Source of the DNA: a virus
Virus record (IMG/VR): IMGVR_UViG_3300048014_000353
Coordinates: 1-64,000 of that record
DNA length: 64,000 bases
Reading direction: 5' to 3' (one strand)
The position numbers and the translations under genes are program-made. The notes beneath the pieces were generated by a model. The model did not search any database, was not told the DNA's origin, and saw only the letters and a list, made by a program, of their open reading frames with translations. This document shows, piece after piece, positions 5,264 to 24,857 of the stretch. How positions within the stretch are numbered: the first letter of the stretch is position 1; the number at the start of each line of letters is the position of its first letter.

Positions 5264-5503
5264 GTGTCCGCCGCCTACATCGTCGCCGCAGTGCTCGCGT
5301 GCGCGGCGTTCGGGTGCACCGAGACCGTCGTGGTGTCGGCGGACGGGGATGCGATCGGCGCGTACTGCGAGGAGTGGAACGGGCCTACCCCCGTGGATTG
5401 TCTCCGCACATGTACGGACGGGTTCCGGGTGCTGAAGGTTGCGATCGGGAGGGGGCCGAGTCCCCAGGTCTTGCGGTGCCTGGGGGATGGGGGCGCCAGG
5501 TGA
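5264..5503 (+). CDS. Small putative lipoprotein
   Basis: Hydrophobic signal ending AAFGC (lipobox-like), followed by additional Cys residues. Confidence 0.45.
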   Translation: MSAAYIVAAVLACAAFGCTETVVVSADGDAIGAYCEEWNGPTPVDCLRTCTDGFRVLKVAIGRGPSPQVLRCLGDGGAR

Positions 5504-11657: not shown

Positions 11658-12592
11658 GGATCGTCGCTCTCCTCCTCCACGCTCGTCGCAAAGTTCTGGG
11701 CTCCTGGGACCTCCCCTTCGGGTCCCCAAAGTAAGACGCGCGCCTCCGACGCTCTCTCGTCGAGCATTCGATCGCCAATCAAGTGCTGGATGTCGGGAAT
11801 GATGCGGTCCAAGAGACCACTTGCGTAGAACCGATCCCGACTCGCACATCGCACGAGCGAATCTAGATTCGAGGCGCTTCGATTCTCGGCGACGACACGA
11901 AACGCGAGCGGTAGAACCATCTCGATCTTGTAGAGGTCGGCGATGTCGTACACGAAGGCGAGCGACTTGCCGGTGTGGAGAAAGCCAAGACTTGGACTGA
12001 ATCCGGTGGCGACGATCACCGAATGGCAGACGCCGTACAGGCAGGCATTCGCCGCGGAGAGCGCCCGATTGACAGGATCGGCGTGCTCCCAAGCCCCGTT
12101 TAGCTTGCGGCCCTTCCACGCGACGCCCGTTTCGCGTCCCACCTTGGCGTAGGCCTCTCGAACACGTACGCCCTCGCGCCCACGTGCCTGTTCGATGCTC
12201 GTCGCTCCGAGCGACTCGCCAAACCTTCGCTCGTACATGCGTCGAACGACGTCCAGACGGCGGCCGGGATCCGCCCATGCCTTCACTTGCGCGAGCAGAT
12301 TGGTCGACCGGCGGGTTTCGCCCGTCCCGCTCGCGTAGAAGCGGACTCCCTTTTCCCCCGTCCAGACGACCGAGCAGCCATTGTCCGCGATCGACATCAT
12401 GGCCGCGTGCGTGATCGACGTGCCCGGCCCCAGCATCAGCACGCAAAGAGACGAGACGGGAACTCTCGTCTCTCCGTTCACATCGATCACCACGAGCGCA
12501 TGGTTCTCCCGTTCGATCTTTGCGTGCTCGAAGTAGGCAAAGGACCAGCTCTCCGACACGCGCGGAAGGGACTGGAGATCAACGCGACTCAC
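11654..12592 (-). CDS. cas1: Type I-E Cas1, catalytic residues intact
   Basis: LMLGPGTSITHAAM, RGREGVRVR (E), GFLHTG (H), FVYDIADLYK (D); GTG start at 12592. Confidence 0.96.
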   Translation of the reverse strand: MSRVDLQSLPRVSESWSFAYFEHAKIERENHALVVIDVNGETRVPVSSLCVLMLGPGTSITHAAMMSIADNGCSVVWTGEKGVRFYASGTGETRRSTNLLAQVKAWADPGRRLDVVRRMYERRFGESLGATSIEQARGREGVRVREAYAKVGRETGVAWKGRKLNGAWEHADPVNRALSAANACLYGVCHSVIVATGFSPSLGFLHTGKSLAFVYDIADLYKIEMVLPLAFRVVAENRSASNLDSLVRCASRDRFYASGLLDRIIPDIQHLIGDRMLDERASEARVLLWGPEGEVPGAQNFATSVEEESDDP

Positions 12593-13224
12593 GCCGCCGC
12601 TCGAGCCACGAGCAAGAGCCCGCACCCATAGGACTTCCCGCGGCCGATCCCGTTCTCCAGCGCCTTGCGCATCGTGCCCGTGTCCACGACCCGCAGCACC
12701 CCATCGAAGCACACGGGGTGCTCGACGTGAGAGGGCGATGGCCCACTCCCCCACTCTTCTTCGCGCGAGCACGGCGCCGCGAGCGCCGACTCGACCTCAA
12801 AGCCGCTTCGCGCTCCGGCGCGCGCGAGCCACGCCCCCAGAGCGTCGTCGCCGCGAAGGGCCACGCGCCGGGTCGAGCGCGAAACCGACTTCACGACGTT
12901 GCCGACCAAGCGGAAGCGGAACCGCTGCCCCGTGCCCACGGCCTCGAGCACCGGCGCGAGCGACTTGACCTCCGGAGGCGCCGCGAACACGGCGCGCGGC
13001 CAGCCGCTCCAATCGGGTTCGGCTTTTGATTGGACCAGCAGCGTCAGGCGGCCGTCGCGCTCGACCGTCAACCGATGCAGGATGCGCGCGCGAGATCGCG
13101 CGTCGGGGACCCGTTCGACGCCGGGAAAGAGACGCCAGAGCGCCCCGTGCATCACGAGAGGGCTGCGGACCCACGGCCAGACCTCCGAGGACGCGGGGTT
13201 GAGGAAGATGCGAGAGAGGTTCAT
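12589..13224 (-). CDS. cas6e: Cas6e (Cse3) crRNA endonuclease
   Basis: MNLSRIFLN...MHGAL...FRFRLVGN...FDGVLRV..., G-rich loop GIGRGKSYGCGLL. Confidence 0.95.
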   Translation of the reverse strand: MNLSRIFLNPASSEVWPWVRSPLVMHGALWRLFPGVERVPDARSRARILHRLTVERDGRLTLLVQSKAEPDWSGWPRAVFAAPPEVKSLAPVLEAVGTGQRFRFRLVGNVVKSVSRSTRRVALRGDDALGAWLARAGARSGFEVESALAAPCSREEEWGSGPSPSHVEHPVCFDGVLRVVDTGTMRKALENGIGRGKSYGCGLLLVARAAA

Positions 13225-13898
13225 GCGATTCTCCGTGCGGCGGGCGGGTCGGTCCAGACGGTCTCCACGTACCGGCGCCGGAAGACCCGCGGTTGGAACG
13301 TGACCGGGACGTCGTCGCGCGGTTGGCCGCGCTCGGGCGTCGACTCGATCAGAAGACGAAGCGTGTCGTCGCCGGCGCGCTCGGCGCGCGGCCACTTCCG
13401 CACGCACTCGCTCGCCGACGCCTGCTCCAAGGATTCGAAGATGGGGCACGCCGGAACGCAGGCCTTGCGGCCCAGGCTCAGCGGCCACACCGGCGAACGG
13501 AGCGCATCCTTCACGCGCACAAGGAGCGCCTCGTCGTGCTCGAGCGCGACGAGGAAGCTCGCGTCGGCGAGGTAGTAGCGCTCCGTGGGGACGGTGTGCT
13601 CCGCCCGCCGCGTCTTGGCGTCGTAGACGGCATGGGAGAGGTCCCCGAACGCGCCACCTCCGGTCGTGTGGTAGTCTCGTTCGATCGCCCCCTCGCGGTC
13701 GACACGCACGGTCATCGCGCCCTCGGCGAGCTGCCCGATGGTCGTCCGGTCGTCGCGCGTGACCCCCATCGCTGCGCAAAGGAGACCAACAACCCCCGAC
13801 TTGGTCGGTTCGCGCTCGGTTGTGAGGATCGAAAATCGCGCCTGCGATCCCCAACTCTGGAACGGTCCCTCGAGTCGTAGGAGCAGCGTGGCGTTCAC
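13221..13898 (-). CDS. cas5e: Cas5e (CasD), no HNH fusion
   Basis: LLLRLEGPFQSWG...PTKSGVVGLLCAAMG...ERYYLADASF...LSLGRKACVP; about 225 aa. Confidence 0.95.
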   Translation of the reverse strand: MNATLLLRLEGPFQSWGSQARFSILTTEREPTKSGVVGLLCAAMGVTRDDRTTIGQLAEGAMTVRVDREGAIERDYHTTGGGAFGDLSHAVYDAKTRRAEHTVPTERYYLADASFLVALEHDEALLVRVKDALRSPVWPLSLGRKACVPACPIFESLEQASASECVRKWPRAERAGDDTLRLLIESTPERGQPRDDVPVTFQPRVFRRRYVETVWTDPPAARRIA

Positions 13899-15019
13899 TT
13901 GTCCTCGTTCTTGTGGAGAAGCGAACGAACGCGGTTGAGCGCGGTCTCGATGACCGCGTCGACGCTCGGGACCATGCGAATCCCCACGTCGTCCCGCGTG
14001 GCATCGCGGTCCTGGCAAGCCGCCGCGAATTCGTTGATGCGCGTCCCGTACATCGTGTGGACGCGCGCCCAGTACCGCTCGAGCGCGAGGATCGACTCGC
14101 CCACGATGTCGTGTTCGCGCGGGCGCACGGGCTGCGCGAAGGCGTTGGTGAGCGCGAAAGGTTGGCCTTCGTGGGCAACGACGAGCACGTAGCTCGGCGG
14201 GTTGTGCGCGGCGAAGCTGGTCTGTTTGCCCGTGGGGATCGCGTGGACCATCGCGCGCAGCCACGCCTCCGCCGTGGGCTCGACGAGCTTGTCGAATTGA
14301 AGGTTCGTGCGGAGCAGCGGCACGTTCATCGTCGCGTACCGGTACTGGCACGAGGCCACGAACTGCGACGAGTCCATGTGCGCGCTGCCCGTCTCGCCCT
14401 TGGGCTGCAGATCGTCCACGGCCGTGAAGAAGTCGAAGTCGTTGTCGGCCGCGTGGGTCGAGAGGCTCTGCGCCGTCTGGACGGCGCCGGCGACGCCCCA
14501 GTCGTCTCCCTCGGCGATCATGCGCCCGAATGCGGCGACGTCCGGCGTGCGCGTTGCGTCCTTGAGGAGCGCCTGCACGCGCTCGGTGACGGTCTTCGGA
14601 ATCGTCTTCTTGTCGATCCCTGTCCACGATTCGTGGACAACCCCGGCGATGCTGCGGATGCGGTCCTTGGGGAGGAACACCAGCGTCGCGGTCTTCTGCG
14701 TCTTCTCGTCGATCTTCAGCCCCGCCGCGGCGATGACGCGGGCGGCGACCTCGAGCGCGACGGCCGGATCGTGGTCGGCCGCCAAGATCTCGGCGACCGC
14801 ATGCGGGATGCGCTTGGTGCGGACCCCGAGCGCCGAGGTCTCCAACTCGCTCTCGGCGGCGAAGTGGTTGCGGATGGCGCGCTTCGAGCACTGGCTCGAG
14901 ATCCGCGCGCGCCGCGCACCGGCGAAGACGGCGTCCTTGGGAGCGCCGTTGTCGTCGCGGTTGAGGTTCGACGGCGCGAAGTTCTGCAAGATGTGAACGT
15001 CGATGCTGAGCGTATTCAT
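13895..15019 (-). CDS. cas7e: Cas7e (CasC)
   Basis: IDVHILQNFAPSNLNRDDNGAPKDAVFAGARRARISSQCSKRAIR...DFFTAVDDL. Confidence 0.97.
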   Translation of the reverse strand: MNTLSIDVHILQNFAPSNLNRDDNGAPKDAVFAGARRARISSQCSKRAIRNHFAAESELETSALGVRTKRIPHAVAEILAADHDPAVALEVAARVIAAAGLKIDEKTQKTATLVFLPKDRIRSIAGVVHESWTGIDKKTIPKTVTERVQALLKDATRTPDVAAFGRMIAEGDDWGVAGAVQTAQSLSTHAADNDFDFFTAVDDLQPKGETGSAHMDSSQFVASCQYRYATMNVPLLRTNLQFDKLVEPTAEAWLRAMVHAIPTGKQTSFAAHNPPSYVLVVAHEGQPFALTNAFAQPVRPREHDIVGESILALERYWARVHTMYGTRINEFAAACQDRDATRDDVGIRMVPSVDAVIETALNRVRSLLHKNEDK

Positions 15020-15522
15020 GTCGTCTCCTTGGTGGGTTCAGTCGGTTCAGTCGGTTCGGTCGTGGCTGTGGTGGGCGCCCAGTACTCACGCGCCCATTGC
15101 CGTCGGGTGGCGTAGTCCTCCCAGCGGAGGAGGTCGTCGAAGAGCCGGTGCCAGTCGATCGCGATGTCCTCGCCCTTCGCGAGCGTCACCGCGCGTCGAA
15201 GATGCGTCGGGAGCTCGGACCGCGGCGCAACGAGCAGCGCGGTGAAGCGCGCTTCGCTCGCGTTGCCCCCGCGCCGTTCCGCGACCCGTCGAAGGGCGGC
15301 GGCAAGCGGCGTTGAGCCGCGCTTGGGGTATTCGCCGAAAAGGCAGGCGACGAGCATCGAGACGTCCTCGACGTGCTTCGAGGCGGGGACGGGGAGGAAC
15401 GGCGAGATGACGGGGTAGAGTGCCAGCGGTTGCGTCCAGCCGCGCCGCAGCGCGCCTAGGACCGCGCCGTCGCCGCGTTCTGCGGCGCGCGCGAGCGAGT
15501 CAATCAGTCGAAACGTGTTCAT
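15016..15522 (-). CDS. cse2: Cas11e (Cse2/CasB)
   Basis: LGALRRG...EARFTALL...HLRRAVTLAKGEDIAIDWHRLFDDLLRW...RRQWAREYW. Confidence 0.92.
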   Translation of the reverse strand: MNTFRLIDSLARAAERGDGAVLGALRRGWTQPLALYPVISPFLPVPASKHVEDVSMLVACLFGEYPKRGSTPLAAALRRVAERRGGNASEARFTALLVAPRSELPTHLRRAVTLAKGEDIAIDWHRLFDDLLRWEDYATRRQWAREYWAPTTATTEPTEPTEPTKETT

Positions 15523-17002
15523 CGGTACTCTCCTCAGGCGTAGGTGTGGTGGCACCGCGCAGCTTCGAGCGCAGCACCGATTCGGCGATCGTCACGGCAC
15601 GCAAAGCCCGCACGGAAACCCCCGCGCGCGCCCGGGTCGAGAGGTGCAGAGCGCTCCGCGCGGTGGCTTCGGCGTCGCGCAGGAAGAGGTCAACGGCCGC
15701 TTCGCCCGATTCGGTCCACGCAAGCTCGAGAAGGAGCCGTTCGAACGGAGCGGCCATCGCCCCCCAGAAGAACCCGCGGCTTCGCGCGCCGTTGGCGGTC
15801 GCCTTCACCGTCTCCTTGTGCGCGCTCGGAAGCGCCGCGTGCGCCCACATCCACGTCGCGACCCGGAGCGCGTCGTCGATGACCCCGAGCCGTTCCATTG
15901 CACGCTGCAAGAGCGCGAGCTTTGCCTCGCTGGCCAGGACCTCGGGTGTGACCGGGAGGATCTCGGCGCGCGCAAGGTCGATGCGTTTCTGGTAGGAGGC
16001 GAGGCCGTAGACCGCGAGCGAGATGGCCTTGTCGGGGCCGATGATGTCGCGGACGCTCGCCACATGGTCGAGCACCGCGGGACGGCTCGTGGTGTCCGAC
16101 GAGCGAAGGATCGCGTGCGCCGAGCCCCACGCCGCGCGCTCGCGGTGAAGGCCGATCGGGCGCCACTCGTCCTTGATCTTGACGCGCGCACACATGATGT
16201 CCGGCTCCTCGTCTTCGAGCTCGTCGCCGGCGAGGTACGCGATGCCGTCCACGTAGCCTTCGGGCGACAGCGAGAGCGCCATGCGGCGCGACTGCCACGT
16301 GAGGCGATCGAGCGGCCCGTGCGCGCGGCGCGCGCACTTCGCCGTGGCCTCATGGTCGGCCTCCCAGGCGGGCACGTCCTGTCGGACGTAGGGGGAGGGG
16401 ATCACGTTGAGCATCAGGGTCTCGAACAGGTTTGCTCCTTGTGGAACGATGACGCACGAGCCGCACAGCGGCGCGGCCTTGCCTGACTCGCCCATCGTCA
16501 TGCCGCCCGGCGCGAAGGCCTGGTACGCGAGCAGCGCGCTCGCGGCGCGAGCCGGCGACAGCCGGTCGTTCTCCGCCGGGTCGCGCGCCTCGACAAAGAG
16601 GTGCACCGCCGCGCCGAAGTTGCACGTCTCCATCACGAGACGACGAACGATGTGAGGCCCCCCCTTCACACTCGAGCGCGCCGTGGACGACTGCATGAAC
16701 GGGCGCCCCTCGGCGAACAGATCGAAGCGCTCGCCCCAGCGATCGAAGTACGCGCGCACGGCGTTCTCCTCGAAGCGCCCACGCTTCCACGCGCGCTCCC
16801 ATTCCTTCTTGGAATGCGGACCTTGCAGAACGCGGTGCGCGAGCACGACAAGGAGCCGATAGACCGCGGCCGTCTCCACCGGGGAGAGTCCCGTGATCTC
16901 ACGAATTTCGTGGGCGTCCGTCAGGGACTCCACAAGGTTCACTGGCTGCTCCGTGCCTCCCTTGGATACCGTGAGCCAATGCACTCTGGAGAGGTTGAAC
17001 AT
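15500..17002 (-). CDS. cse1: Cas8e (Cse1/CasA)
   Basis: FNL..VHWLTV, ERFDLF...PFMQ, GANLFETLMLN, LTWQSRRMAL; about 500 aa with no HNH extension. Confidence 0.92.
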   Translation of the reverse strand: MFNLSRVHWLTVSKGGTEQPVNLVESLTDAHEIREITGLSPVETAAVYRLLVVLAHRVLQGPHSKKEWERAWKRGRFEENAVRAYFDRWGERFDLFAEGRPFMQSSTARSSVKGGPHIVRRLVMETCNFGAAVHLFVEARDPAENDRLSPARAASALLAYQAFAPGGMTMGESGKAAPLCGSCVIVPQGANLFETLMLNVIPSPYVRQDVPAWEADHEATAKCARRAHGPLDRLTWQSRRMALSLSPEGYVDGIAYLAGDELEDEEPDIMCARVKIKDEWRPIGLHRERAAWGSAHAILRSSDTTSRPAVLDHVASVRDIIGPDKAISLAVYGLASYQKRIDLARAEILPVTPEVLASEAKLALLQRAMERLGVIDDALRVATWMWAHAALPSAHKETVKATANGARSRGFFWGAMAAPFERLLLELAWTESGEAAVDLFLRDAEATARSALHLSTRARAGVSVRALRAVTIAESVLRSKLRGATTPTPEESTDEHVSTD

Positions 17003-17019
17003 GCGGCCCATACTGGGCG

Positions 17020-17037
17020 TGACTCGTATTCAAGTCA
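17020..17037. promoter_or_regulatory. 18-bp operator overlapping the putative cas promoter
   Basis: TGACTCGTATTCAAGTCA; on the minus strand TTGACT-N17-CAGTAT ends 7 nt before the cas8e ATG. Confidence 0.65.
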
Positions 17038-17061
17038 ACAAAGAAAGTAATCAACCTCGCC

Positions 17062-17223
17062 CTAAAGGGCGAGGCTTTGTTCCTGGCATAGCTGAGGACT
17101 CGAAGAAACTATGTGCTCTCCGATACCCAACCTGACAGCCGAAACGATAGGGCCGATTACTGGACCCCTGGATGCGATGTTGCGCGCGCCGACATGGTCG
17201 GCATGAGCAACGAACCCGCATCG
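17062..17223 (-). pseudogene. tnpB: tnpB C-terminal fragment
   Basis: RCGFVAHADHVGARNIASRGPVIGPIV: last zinc-finger Cys plus the RuvC-III xADxxxAxNI motif. Confidence 0.85.
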
Positions 17224-17721
17224 TCAATGACGGTGCTTGCGCAGGTAATTGATCGCTGCCGAGAGAACGCTGACGTCATCGTGTGCGAGCCCGAGCATAC
17301 GATTGCAGTTAGCGCAAAGCAGCCCACGCACGGTGCCGCATGCGTGGCAATGATCTACCGCGCTCTTGCCCGAACCAGCGGCCAGCGGCCGAGTACATAT
17401 TCCGCACGTCTCCCCGTCGTACGCGTACGTCGAGCCGTATTTGGCAACTTGAGCGTAGCAAGCGCGGCAGATGCCGCTTCCGATCGTTCGCTCCGGCCTA
17501 GTTGGATGGCAGGCGGACGGTGGGTTGGTCTTCGCCTTTGCCAGCGAGTAGCACGATCGGCACACACCCGACCCGATGACGTGCTCGGCGCGTGCGGGGT
17601 GGCAAACGGAGCGTGCTCGGCGCGAGTCGAGCAACGCTTCGTAGCAAGGGCGACACCTTCCGCCTACGTAGTTCGGTCTGGTGGCGTGGCAGTCGGATGT
17701 CTTGGTCCTGGCGTGTCGCAT
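17224..17721 (-). CDS. Endonuclease VII-type (HNH fold) nuclease with three N-terminal Cys/His repeats
   Basis: Three CH(A/P)xR...G.CRxCY repeats, then CGIC...[35 protein letters not shown]. Confidence 0.88.
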
Positions 17722-17982
17722 CTATACGTCCGAGTCGAAGGCAAGATTGCGGATGCCGAGGTCGACGCCGAGCCAGCCTTCGGGATCGATGGGCGAGCCG
17801 TCGGGCACGTCGACGGTCACGAAGAGATAGAGCTTGCCCTTGCGGTAGACGAGGTCGGCCTGTCCTCGGACGCCGTCGAGCCGTCCGCGATGGTACGCGC
17901 CGATGGCGCACGGGACGACCATGCGTCCATCGAGAGCGAGCAGACTCACGCGATCGAGACCGTTCTTGAACGTGTAGATCCG
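17722..17982 (-). pseudogene. tnpB: tnpB internal fragment (up to RuvC-I)
   Basis: RIYTFKNGLDRVSLLALDGR...GQADLVYRKGKLYLFVTVDVP...WLGVDLGIRNLAFDSD, then TAG. Confidence 0.88.
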
Positions 17983-18036
17983 ACGGCGCTTCCTCCCCGG
18001 CCTGAAGGCCGAGGCTTCCGCGCCGGAGAATGGTGA

Positions 18037-19326
18037 TCATCGTGACGAGGGGAGGGAGGCCCATTCGGTCGGCGGCCACGTGCCGAACCGATCCCGGAAT
18101 TGAACCGCCACCGCGCTCGCCGAGCGTCCAAGTCGTCGCCCTTCGTTCCACATTGCTTCGTAGGACGCGCGCAGCGCACTCGGAGACGGGGGCAGCTGCG
18201 ACGAGCGCCGCGCGTCGGCGGCGTCGGTAACCGCGATGAGCGGCACGCCCACCACCTCTTGCACGAACGCCTCGCGCGCGACGTCTTGATCGGTCGGCGG
18301 CGTCGGCGGCGTCGGCCGGCCCATGCCGATGCCGGTGCCCGTCAACGAGTACTCGCGGTCACACGTCGGAAAGCCGTGCCGAATGGAGGAGCCGACCAGA
18401 TCGATGACGATCGCATCCAGCTTCCCAGCGCAGGCACGAAGACCGCGCCCCGTGGCCTGAAGGTACGTCGACACGTGGTCGCAGCCCTTGGCGAGGATGA
18501 TGCATCGAAGCTCCGGCACATCGATGCCCTCGGTCATCGTATCCACGTTCGTGATGACGCGCAGGCGCCCCTCGCGGAAGTCGCGCAACGCCTTCTCGCG
18601 CTCTTCGGTGGGGGTCTCCGCCGAGATGCACGCCGCGGGCACGTGGAGGCGGAAGCGCTCGGCGAGCGCTTCGGCGATCGCGACCCGCGCGCAGAACACG
18701 AAGGCCTGCGATCGGTTCGCGAGCGCGAGCCACGCCTCGACCGGGTCCTTCGCGAGATCCGCCCCGAGAAAACGCTCGGGCTGGTAGAGGCGCACGGGCA
18801 CGATGTACCCCTCGGCGAGCAGATCGCTGTAGTGAGCGGCGACGACGCTCTCCTCGAAGACGTCGCCGAGCGGGGAGCCATCGGCGCGCTCGGGCGTCGC
18901 GGTGAGTCCAACGCAGCGCACGCCAGGATATGCCTGGACGAGCTCTCGGTAGCTCTCGGCGACGTAGTGGTGGCATTCGTCAAGGACCAGAAGATCCGCC
19001 TGCGGGCGAAGGTCGCGCGCGAGCAGAGTCTGCACGGTGCCGACTTGGATGCGCGCCTCGGGATGGGCCGGATGCCCCGCCATCAACACGCCGACGTGAC
19101 CTTCGCCGAACCGCGCCGCCAAGCGCGCGGCGAGTTGCGAGACCAGGTCCCGTTGGTGCGCGACAACGAGCGCGCGCCGGCGGGGCGTGAGCAGAATGCT
19201 CGCCATCTCCGTCTTGCCCGCGCCGGTGGGCGCGATGAGACACACCGAGCGAGTCCCCGCGCTCCAGAGCGCCTCGACCTTCGCGCACGCGTCAACCTGG
19301 TAGAGGCGAGCTTCGCGCACTCCCAT
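18037..19326 (-). CDS. Superfamily 2 (DEAD/DEAH-like) phage helicase, no HD domain
   Basis: APTGAGKT, DECHH, GLTATPER, TEGIDVP, YLQATGRGLR. Confidence 0.92.
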   Translation of the reverse strand: MGVREARLYQVDACAKVEALWSAGTRSVCLIAPTGAGKTEMASILLTPRRRALVVAHQRDLVSQLAARLAARFGEGHVGVLMAGHPAHPEARIQVGTVQTLLARDLRPQADLLVLDECHHYVAESYRELVQAYPGVRCVGLTATPERADGSPLGDVFEESVVAAHYSDLLAEGYIVPVRLYQPERFLGADLAKDPVEAWLALANRSQAFVFCARVAIAEALAERFRLHVPAACISAETPTEEREKALRDFREGRLRVITNVDTMTEGIDVPELRCIILAKGCDHVSTYLQATGRGLRACAGKLDAIVIDLVGSSIRHGFPTCDREYSLTGTGIGMGRPTPPTPPTDQDVAREAFVQEVVGVPLIAVTDAADARRSSQLPPSPSALRASYEAMWNEGRRLGRSASAVAVQFRDRFGTWPPTEWASLPSSR

Positions 19327-24030: not shown

Positions 24031-24458
24031 CCAAACCATCAAGCCCCCGCTCGGCCTTGCAGGCGGGGGTCGCTGCGGGCGGCGCACGATGTCGCGTCAA
24101 CGAGGTCTCTCCTGGTTCTCGATGTAGCGACGGATGATGTCGATAGGGGCGCCGCCTGCGGAGAGCAGGCAGTAACTCGGGCTCCAGAGGACGGCCTTCC
24201 CGCGGTAGGCGGCGCGAAGCGCCGGGAACTCGGATCGCAGTCTCCGGCTGGAGACGGTCTTGAGGAGGTTGATGAGATCGGACGGCCGGACCTTCGGCGG
24301 CAGGTCGAGCAGCGCGTGGACGTGATCCGCCTCGCCGGAGCACTCGACGACGACGCAGTCCCACGCCTTGGCGAGGTCGGAGAGGATCGCGGTGCAGCGA
24401 TCGAGCATCGGTCCGGTGAAGACGTGCTTGCGGTAAGCGCAGGGAGGGGAGTTGTCAC
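24031..24458. mobile_element. IS200/IS605 remnant (left-end hairpin, 5'-truncated tnpA, partial right end)
   Basis: Inserted 3' of TGAC without target duplication; hairpin CCCCCGCTCGGCCTTGCAGGCGGGGG; ends in GTTGTCAC. Confidence 0.8.
24097..24435 (-). pseudogene. tnpA: Y1 HUH transposase TnpA lacking its N-terminus
   Basis: YRKHVF...EADHVHALL (HUH)...LWSPSY...IRRYIENQ (catalytic Y); the first beta strand HLVxxTK is missing. Confidence 0.85.
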
Positions 24459-24857
24459 GAACTGCAGCACGGCCAGGTCAAGATCGAGCATCATCGCCCC
24501 CGCTTCGTCGGCAAGTATTCCTTCGGCACACTCTCCAGCCCCGGGAGCGCCGGCGCGGGCGTCGGCTCGTGCAGGGGATGGCCGAACTTCACCGCGAGCG
24601 CGTCGTGATCGTGCTCAAGCACGTGCGGGTCGCTCATCGAGCGACCTGCGCCGGGATTCCACACCCGACGCTCGCCGCAGGTGCGGCAGATCATGTCGAA
24701 GGTCGGCGGGTGGAGCGTCGTGTGCTCGGGATGGACAGACCAGTCGTGGTCGAGCGGGTTGGCGCATGGGACGAGCCCGCACCGCGCGCAGCTCTGAACG
24801 CCATCGGCGTTCGTCGCGAAGGCGTGGGTCTCCGGAGGGCAGGGGGGCGTCATGGGC

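Follow-up and report, generated by a model that had tools for sequence, protein, structure and literature searches.

An EndoVII-motif nuclease gene in place of the tnpB core of a non-autonomous IS605-family element found at two TCAC sites in phage genomes

We examined a stretch of 64,000 nucleotides (hereafter the window), the first 64 kb of a 138.5-kb virus record in IMG/VR (IMGVR_UViG_3300048014_000353) that originates from moss and peat metagenomes, and found a composite mobile element at positions 17047-18036 on the minus strand. The element is a non-autonomous shell of the IS200/IS605 family of insertion sequences (IS), of the tnpB-only (IS1341-type) kind, in which the core of tnpB was recently replaced by an intact, conserved nuclease gene bearing the endonuclease VII (EndoVII) motif, and this chimera was located in different phage genomes, at no fewer than two TCAC sites. 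As the likeliest mechanism, with a probability of roughly 60%, we propose a homing-endonuclease gene (HEG) that targets tnpB itself and is carried on the non-autonomous IS. The original prediction, made from the letters of the window alone, had offered a homing endonuclease hitch-hiking on such an IS as one of its two suggestions, and this suggestion fits the evidence.

Reading along minus-strand frame 1, we found one after another the stop codon of a helicase gene, a TnpB-like stretch ending in GVDLGIRNLAFDSDV, a TAG stop, an ATG opening a 165-aa open reading frame (ORF; 17224-17721), a TGA stop, a stretch beginning RCGFVAHADHVGARNIA and a perfect 8-bp hairpin, which confirmed the one-frame order of tnpB, EndoVII ORF and tnpB C-terminus that had been described earlier. 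The ORF matched the Pfam family Endonuclease_7 (PF02945; E 4e-19; 68.6 bits against a cut-off of 23.6) over residues 92-162 and phrog_2914 over residues 9-164. The flanking TnpB pieces matched positions 101-212 and 372-389 of the 389 in the NCBIfam profile guided_TnpB, matches that are weak taken alone, and were 92-93% identical to an intact TnpB of 387 aa (P0126), whose C-terminus matches the tail retained in the chimera. Alignment with six intact relatives (L014, L015, L016, L036, L080 and L145) placed the junctions at nucleotide level: homology stops after GACTCnGACG and resumes at GATGCGG, and the chimera reads GACG followed by TATAGATG on the left and CATTGAC followed by GATGCGG on the right. 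With this family match and the mapped junctions, the exchange of a TnpB core for an EndoVII-motif ORF within an IS605-family shell holds as first read.

The cassette delimited in this way is 504 bp long (17223-17726, minus strand) and consists of 5 nt (TATAG), the nuclease ORF and 1 nt. It replaces P0126 residues 186-331, including the RuvC-II Glu (AVEDL, E257) and the CPEC half (310) of the zinc finger, three of whose four Cys fall in the replaced part. On one side of it lies a tnpB 5' remnant (17727-17982, minus strand) that covers codons ~99-185, with the WED/REC end and the RuvC-I motif GVDLGIRNLAFDSD, and is 93% identical to P0126 residues 99-189; on the other lies the tnpB 3' remnant (17047-17222, minus strand), which holds the last zinc-finger Cys and the RuvC-III HAD motif and, according to covariation and RNA folding, doubles as omegaRNA-like scaffold and right end (RE). 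The cassette thus sits between the two most conserved tnpB motifs (RuvC-I and zinc-finger/RuvC-III), the remnant's TAG stop directly abuts the nuclease ATG, and the left end (LE), the 5' half of tnpB, the whole scaffold and the RE are kept in the chimera. An intact RuvC D-E-D with zinc finger was not present in the window element, and the TnpB of the chimera is dead.

We then compared the ends of the element with those of its relatives. Both terminal hairpins fold as single-stranded DNA (ssDNA; folds of 17983-18036 and 17047-17100), as had been claimed for the two retained ends. The LE (17983-18032, minus strand) forms a two-tier subterminal hairpin (17984-18025; ssDNA fold -15.1 kcal/mol), is identical to positions 5357-5406 of an independent copy (L006), and shows the same architecture with changed bases in the intact relatives L014 and L019. 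The RE hairpin (17055-17074, minus strand) shows compensatory changes across 11 sequences and is followed by the element terminus TTAC at 17047-17050. A TCAC tetranucleotide (18033-18036, minus strand) lies directly 5' of the LE, after the helicase stop; TCAC adjoins the LE in 12/12 elements (window, L006 and the intact L014-L023) with differing upstream flanks, and TTAC follows the conserved RE hairpin in 12/12, with unrelated DNA beyond. The ends are asymmetric, and no direct repeat of the flanks (target-site duplication) was found at the elements compared. Matches to both L006 and L014 stop at exactly 17047 and 18036, so the boundaries first drawn for the element were right to within 1-4 nt. 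Together, TCAC, the LE hairpin, the RE hairpin, TTAC and the unrelated flanks give the layout of a tnpB-only IS200/IS605 element in which TCAC is the target and transposon-adjacent motif (TAM). Intact relatives were found in 10 IMG/VR contigs (L014-L023; 70-88% identity; elements of 1241-1272 bp), and all viral-contig copies of this TCAC-target TnpB family were seen intact except the window's. Elements of this family measure ~1.25 kb and are frequent among the phage contigs of IMG/VR that derive from soil and peat (L014-L023, L036, L072, L080, L136, L145).

The 165-aa protein carries its catalytic motif at the C-terminus (residues 92-162 of 165), where the zinc ligands C106, C109, C136 and C139 and the DHHRN residues D123, H124, H126, R132 and N140 are all invariant in an alignment of 45 sequences. 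Its N-terminal half contains three zinc-knuckle-like C-H-x10-12-C-x2-C repeats (residues 11-29, 40-58 and 71-89), so the three Cys/His repeats noticed at the outset are indeed there, starting at residues 11, 40 and 71. Among solved structures, Hpy99I (E 1e-16) came ahead of T4 EndoVII (E 4.5e-10), and Foldseek ranked Hpy99I first when given an AlphaFold model whose predicted local distance difference test (pLDDT) score was good only for residues 100-165 (mean 59 over the poorly modelled residues 1-100). The layout of T4 EndoVII-type resolvases, an N-terminal motif with a helical dimerisation domain, was not seen: the motif is C-terminal, only T4 residues 10-73 align, and the N-terminal part consists of Cys/His repeats. 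The phage homing endonuclease F-CphI uses the EndoVII motif, and proteins with the motif at the C-terminus form an 'endonuclease' clade (homing/restriction) apart from the resolvases (Fang et al., 2018; PMC6083498). Judged by its sequence, the nuclease belongs with Hpy99I and F-CphI, as an enzyme of sequence-specific or homing type rather than a resolvase. It resembles Hpy99I and the F-CphI/DHHRN homing enzymes in the C-terminal EndoVII/His-Me motif, the four zinc Cys, the Cys-rich, DNA-reading N-terminal part and its small, phage-borne, free-standing kind of gene; it is unlike them in being ~30-45% identical in the catalytic domain only, in having three CH..C..C repeats as its N-terminal part, and in the nature of its host gene, which is the nuclease gene of a transposon and not an intron or a phage housekeeping gene.

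Relatives of the nuclease over its whole length (PHROG 2914; genes of Streptomyces and Pseudomonas phages) are free-standing and ~30% identical. Variants that are 92% identical occur on other contigs and differ by 12-13 substitutions, none of them at Cys, His or catalytic positions. A nuclease search of genome contigs returned only a 31% relative, and no TnpB fragments were found alongside the more distant EndoVII genes at loci L003-L005, L009-L013 and L025.

A search for the same architecture at other loci showed that the chimera is not a one-off, and brought to light a second insertion site together with hints of other tnpB alleles. Three metagenome contigs that share one context (L006, L007 and L008) encode the same nuclease (100% protein identity) and match the window over 17047-18036 only (99.4% identical), with unrelated flanks that are absent from this virus record; the element has therefore been mobile, the same chimera standing at two TCAC sites with unrelated flanks. 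The L006 copy is 333 bp longer, retaining the tnpB ATG and ~first 100 codons (ORF start at 5440), and its tnpB 5' ORF encodes 186 aa and ends at the TAG that abuts the nuclease ATG. Since residues 1-186 of the intact P0126 match this fragment at 99% identity, the replacement of residues 186-331 must have been recent. In a global alignment L006 5407-5739 is absent from the window copy (deletion point 17982/17983, in this copy only), and this 333-bp deletion took the promoter-proximal part of tnpB, its ATG and ~first 100 codons. The window copy is, on this comparison, a further-deleted, decayed derivative of a fuller chimera, and the part that had been read as tnpB up to RuvC-I is a headless remnant. 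We also rejected as meaningless the frame that helicase and element share, which results from the 333-bp deletion and the 504-bp cassette. The L006 element itself lies exactly on a terminase stop codon (L006 6666-6680 and 5340-5357), where the target TCAC is complementary to the native TGA stop; with the element in place, its terminal TTAC provides a TAA, and the terminase C-terminus (..WPGRG) is unchanged.

Between the window and L006 copies 6 nt differ in 4 events: the tnpB 5' remnant has two, the tail a cluster of 3 nt and the RE hairpin one; that is, the nuclease ORF differs at 0/498 nt and the remnants by 4 mutational events in 427 nt. As the window copy has lost the start and ~100 codons of the TnpB N-fragment and its nuclease ORF is free of substitutions, the nuclease is maintained independently of any TnpB part. 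These two copies also bear on an alternative that we consider unlikely, in which tnpB received an ordinary phage EndoVII/HNH gene through one illegitimate recombination and the dead IS has spread only through TnpA in trans; the nuclease would be passive cargo that does nothing for its own spread and may serve the phage, for example in recombination or packaging. Identical junctions at the two TCAC sites are what transposition of one chimera is expected to leave, the full-length relatives of the nuclease are ordinary free-standing phage genes, and non-autonomous IS605 derivatives are common (PMC10055086). One copy, moreover, stands beside a terminase large-subunit gene (L006; phrog_2), although the two are convergent there and no such neighbour is present at the window site. 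Conservation of the nuclease ORF while the remnants change speaks against mere cargo, and so do the trimming of the cassette, which has just 5 nt ahead of the ATG and 1 nt beyond the stop, and its place between the two most conserved tnpB motifs.

Evidence that the cassette has met more than one tnpB allele argues against passive cargo as well. Among the contigs of a 2024 peat run, one of 151 nt spans the right junction with a nuclease 3' end identical to the window's, and its tail carries nine changes within 22 nt, four of them synonymous-type, and reads CGFAANADWVG, which is typical of other intact family members. With only 8 nt between the cassette and the first difference, a 31-mer assembly cannot make this join from separate molecules, and we read the contig as the same cassette end joined to a different coding tnpB allele. 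Truncated TnpBs on short contigs also end at the junction codon (P0246 and P0247, 186 aa; P0368, 185 aa), and they come from other lineages: P0246 matches, at 100% identity, residues 1-186 of P0129 and P0131, intact TnpBs that share only 87% identity with the remnant in L006. These two indirect lines suggest that the cassette moves between tnpB alleles. A pattern scan of viral contigs for the tail motif gave 120 loci, mostly chance matches, of which the 9 with TnpB were intact (9/9).

We return to the homing endonuclease, which would account for the trimming of the cassette to its ORF, its place between conserved motifs, its coupling to the tnpB 5' ORF, the long homology arms and the occurrence of more than one tnpB allele. 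Under this proposal, a free-standing homing-type EndoVII-motif gene (DHHRN; of the Hpy99I/F-CphI clade) would have colonised the tnpB of a tnpB-only IS200/IS605 element. The predicted targets of the nuclease are intact tnpB alleles from this IS family, cut in or close to the very conserved coding motifs (RuvC-I and zinc-finger/RuvC-III) where the cassette junctions lie, and repair would use the ~640-bp left arm and the 176-bp right arm, copying the cassette into the cut allele by intronless homing. The nuclease ORF seems to have no signals of its own and would probably be translated by stop-start coupling (TAGATG) to the tnpB 5' ORF. The resulting composite would be non-autonomous, yet a Y1 TnpA acting in trans could carry it to new TCAC sites; TnpB from intact sibling elements could use the composite's omegaRNA, restoring the element after excision, as has been proposed for palindrome-associated transposable elements (PATEs; PMC10055086). 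At the level of single alleles, the intact P0126 and the chimera may represent absence and presence of the cassette at one tnpB position; one contig has another tail allele, and three truncated TnpBs end at the junction.

Several points weigh against homing. Classical homing usually inserts, and does not replace about 440 bp. The complete chimera was seen at only two insertion sites, and transposition of a single chimera, with ordinary recombination between sibling IS copies afterwards, would give similar patterns. Support for the allele swap is one read-length contig of depth 2. The 92% EndoVII variants, P0246, P0247 and P0368 are linked to the cassette by protein length and end point only, and contig breaks at an assembly branch point could also yield the ends of the three truncated TnpBs. 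For neither context did we find an empty site or the locus with an intact IS in place, and no intact TnpA or TnpB is encoded in the 138-kb record. In scans of viral contigs, the flanking helicase had no close relatives and the L006 terminase had only a 43% relative; sequencing runs with intermediate word shares, considered as possible empty sites, were rejected as fragmentary assemblies of the same insertion.

For the retained 3' region we derived a consensus structure from an alignment of nine intact elements with both chimeric copies. It has seven helices and 43 pairs, which lie entirely on the downstream side of the junction, the first base retained being also the start of helix 1. In this alignment, 93.5% of cells were paired, compared with about 40% when partners were slid by 1-3 columns, and compensatory changes occurred in 19/43 pairs, compared with 4-9 after sliding; 0/500 shuffles reached the observed values, which are to be read knowing that the structure was derived from the same alignment of related sequences. 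The 196-nt stretch of the window gave an RNA fold z = -4.7, and an Rfam search of both strands returned no matching family and nothing relevant. The chimera keeps what by these predictions is a complete omegaRNA-like scaffold with its RE, in line with the earlier view that the tnpB 3' end and right end supply a scaffold; the structured, covarying region abuts a flank just upstream of cas8e. In TnpB systems the guide consists of the 16-20 nt after the RE (PMC8612924; PMC10055086), and by analogy with those systems, from position only, the candidate guide flank is 17027-17046 (minus strand); the putative guide would be 17046-17027, just upstream of cas8e. Within this flank is the TTGACT belonging to a promoter-like site, which lies 35 nt upstream of the ATG of cas8e (17011). 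The use of omegaRNAs in trans has a precedent in PATEs (PMC10055086).

Retention of the scaffold from the first base could also mean that the EndoVII protein has replaced TnpB in the service of the transposon, cutting the emptied donor site or a transposition intermediate, alone or with the omegaRNA and the 186-aa N-fragment. We regard this as very improbable, even though the scaffold is complete and covarying, the TnpB N-fragment of L006 keeps its start and is stop-start coupled to the nuclease, and the three parts share one frame. The retained 176 nt are needed anyway, as RE for TnpA and as homology arm, and the window copy has lost the start and ~100 codons of the N-fragment with the nuclease ORF unchanged. 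Frame sharing has about a 1 in 3 chance of arising, and the significance once attached to the parts lying 'in frame' has no demonstrable meaning, given a 504-bp cassette and stops between the three parts. The nuclease lacks any RNA-binding signature, and members of its clade read DNA by means of protein; a nuclease made of protein alone, moreover, is unable to keep up with a transposon that moves to unrelated sites (as argued in PMC13565253, sec. 6.3). We also consider highly improbable a natural split RNA-guided nuclease, in which RNA would specify the sites to which EndoVII is brought, by itself or together with the TnpB WED/REC fragment of 186 aa that is stop-start coupled to it in L006, its His-Me domain replacing RuvC. 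The other original suggestion, a new nuclease paired with an OMEGA RNA scaffold (obligate mobile element-guided activity), thus found no support: the N-fragment decayed while the nuclease stayed unchanged, and the nuclease represents an ordinary kind of phage protein (phrog_2914) whose DNA recognition is protein-based.

The neighbours of the window copy might be taken to suggest a different role. Upstream lies a superfamily 2 (SF2) helicase gene (18037-19326, minus strand; stop codon 18037-18039), and downstream cas8e/cse1 starts at 17011; the type I-E Cascade genes cse1, cse2, cas7, cas5 and cas6e (12589-17011, minus strand) follow directly on the phage record, and the cas3 position upstream of cas8e is held by an ordinary phage DNA helicase (phrog_16), not Cas3. 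Helicase and EndoVII nuclease might then together replace the Cas3 of a Cas3-less phage type I-E system, helicase, nuclease and cas8e-cse2-cas7-cas5-cas6e following in order on one strand where cas3 normally lies. We hold this to be highly improbable. The nuclease arrived on a mobile element, a 99.4% identical copy of which adjoins a terminase gene where no cas genes are close by, and with the element removed the helicase stop would lie ~45 nt from the cas8e start. The helicase is a standard phage DNA helicase (phrog_16, E 1e-72) that matches ResIII, Helicase_C and DEAD and no HD or Cas3 families, and the pair has neither the HD nuclease nor the Cas3-type DEAH helicase with the Cas3 C-terminal domain. 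The place of the window copy beside the cas operon is incidental. In the whole window (1-64000) ARAGORN found no tRNA or tmRNA gene.

Set beside known systems, we rated the chimera a combination of known kinds, a free-standing HEG and a non-autonomous IS605 element. It is like the tnpB-only IS200/IS605 elements (studied models ISDra2 and IS608), of which P0126 and L014-L023 are ordinary members, in its subterminal end hairpins, insertion 3' of a fixed tetranucleotide without duplication, an omegaRNA overlapping the tnpB 3' end and RE, and the lack of tnpA; unlike them, it has no functional TnpB and depends on TnpA and TnpB in trans. PATEs likewise keep LE, RE and omegaRNA without a working TnpB and need trans factors for transposition and restorative homing, but carry no protein gene, whereas the window element has an intact nuclease ORF (Meers et al., 2023; PMC10055086). 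IStrons (a group I intron with IS605) are also composites of an IS605-family element and a second selfish element; the window element has no intron ribozyme (the Rfam search being empty), and its partner is a protein-only endonuclease gene that destroys tnpB. Intronless homing of the T4 seg/mob genes offers a further likeness, with a nuclease ORF in or between conserved genes that relies on host expression signals, if homing takes place here. The seg/mob genes spread by cutting HEG-less alleles and being copied in during repair, with co-conversion of flanks. The chimera differs from them in two ways: the cassette takes the place of about 440 bp of its host gene, and this gene is a selfish element in its own right, mobile and multi-copy.

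TnpB has come to be regarded as an RNA-guided homing endonuclease belonging to the transposon, and here a classical protein-guided endonuclease gene took its place inside the transposon, a takeover that leaves the transposon ends and the guide-RNA gene usable. Our literature search found no paper on classical homing-endonuclease genes nested in tnpB; according to a 2026 review, classical homing endonucleases in the service of transposons are essentially not found, and they are ill-suited to it (PMC13565253). If the nuclease does home into tnpB, it would be a parasite of a parasite that turns autonomous, nuclease-bearing IS copies into dependants, spreading in two ways, from one IS copy to another by homing and along with the shell as it transposes, and such genes would form a natural set of nucleases whose target should be conserved tnpB sequence.

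Two further traces of related elements were observed. At 24097-24474 (minus strand) the window holds a Y1 (IS200-type) transposase remnant (PF01797, E 1e-32) with the HUH motif (HVHAL) and the C-terminal Tyr region; it has no start codon before residue ~24, its first strand is swapped for unrelated sequence, it abuts the stop of the upstream ORF, and its own stop is followed by a GC hairpin and then CTTGATGG. This gene is probably a dead tnpA; lacking start codon and first strand, it is a doubtful source of transposase for the element, and we did not retain this tnpA at 24.1 kb as its mobiliser. In a peat-metagenome contig from run X12, 17104 is joined to 17984, bringing the RE-proximal ~58 nt to the LE through 39 nt that resemble 17113-17150, which amounts to a protein-less mini-derivative (PATE-like) of the same IS family of roughly 150 bp. 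A loose end in the same run has the LE beside a different ..TTCAC flank, a further TCAC site.

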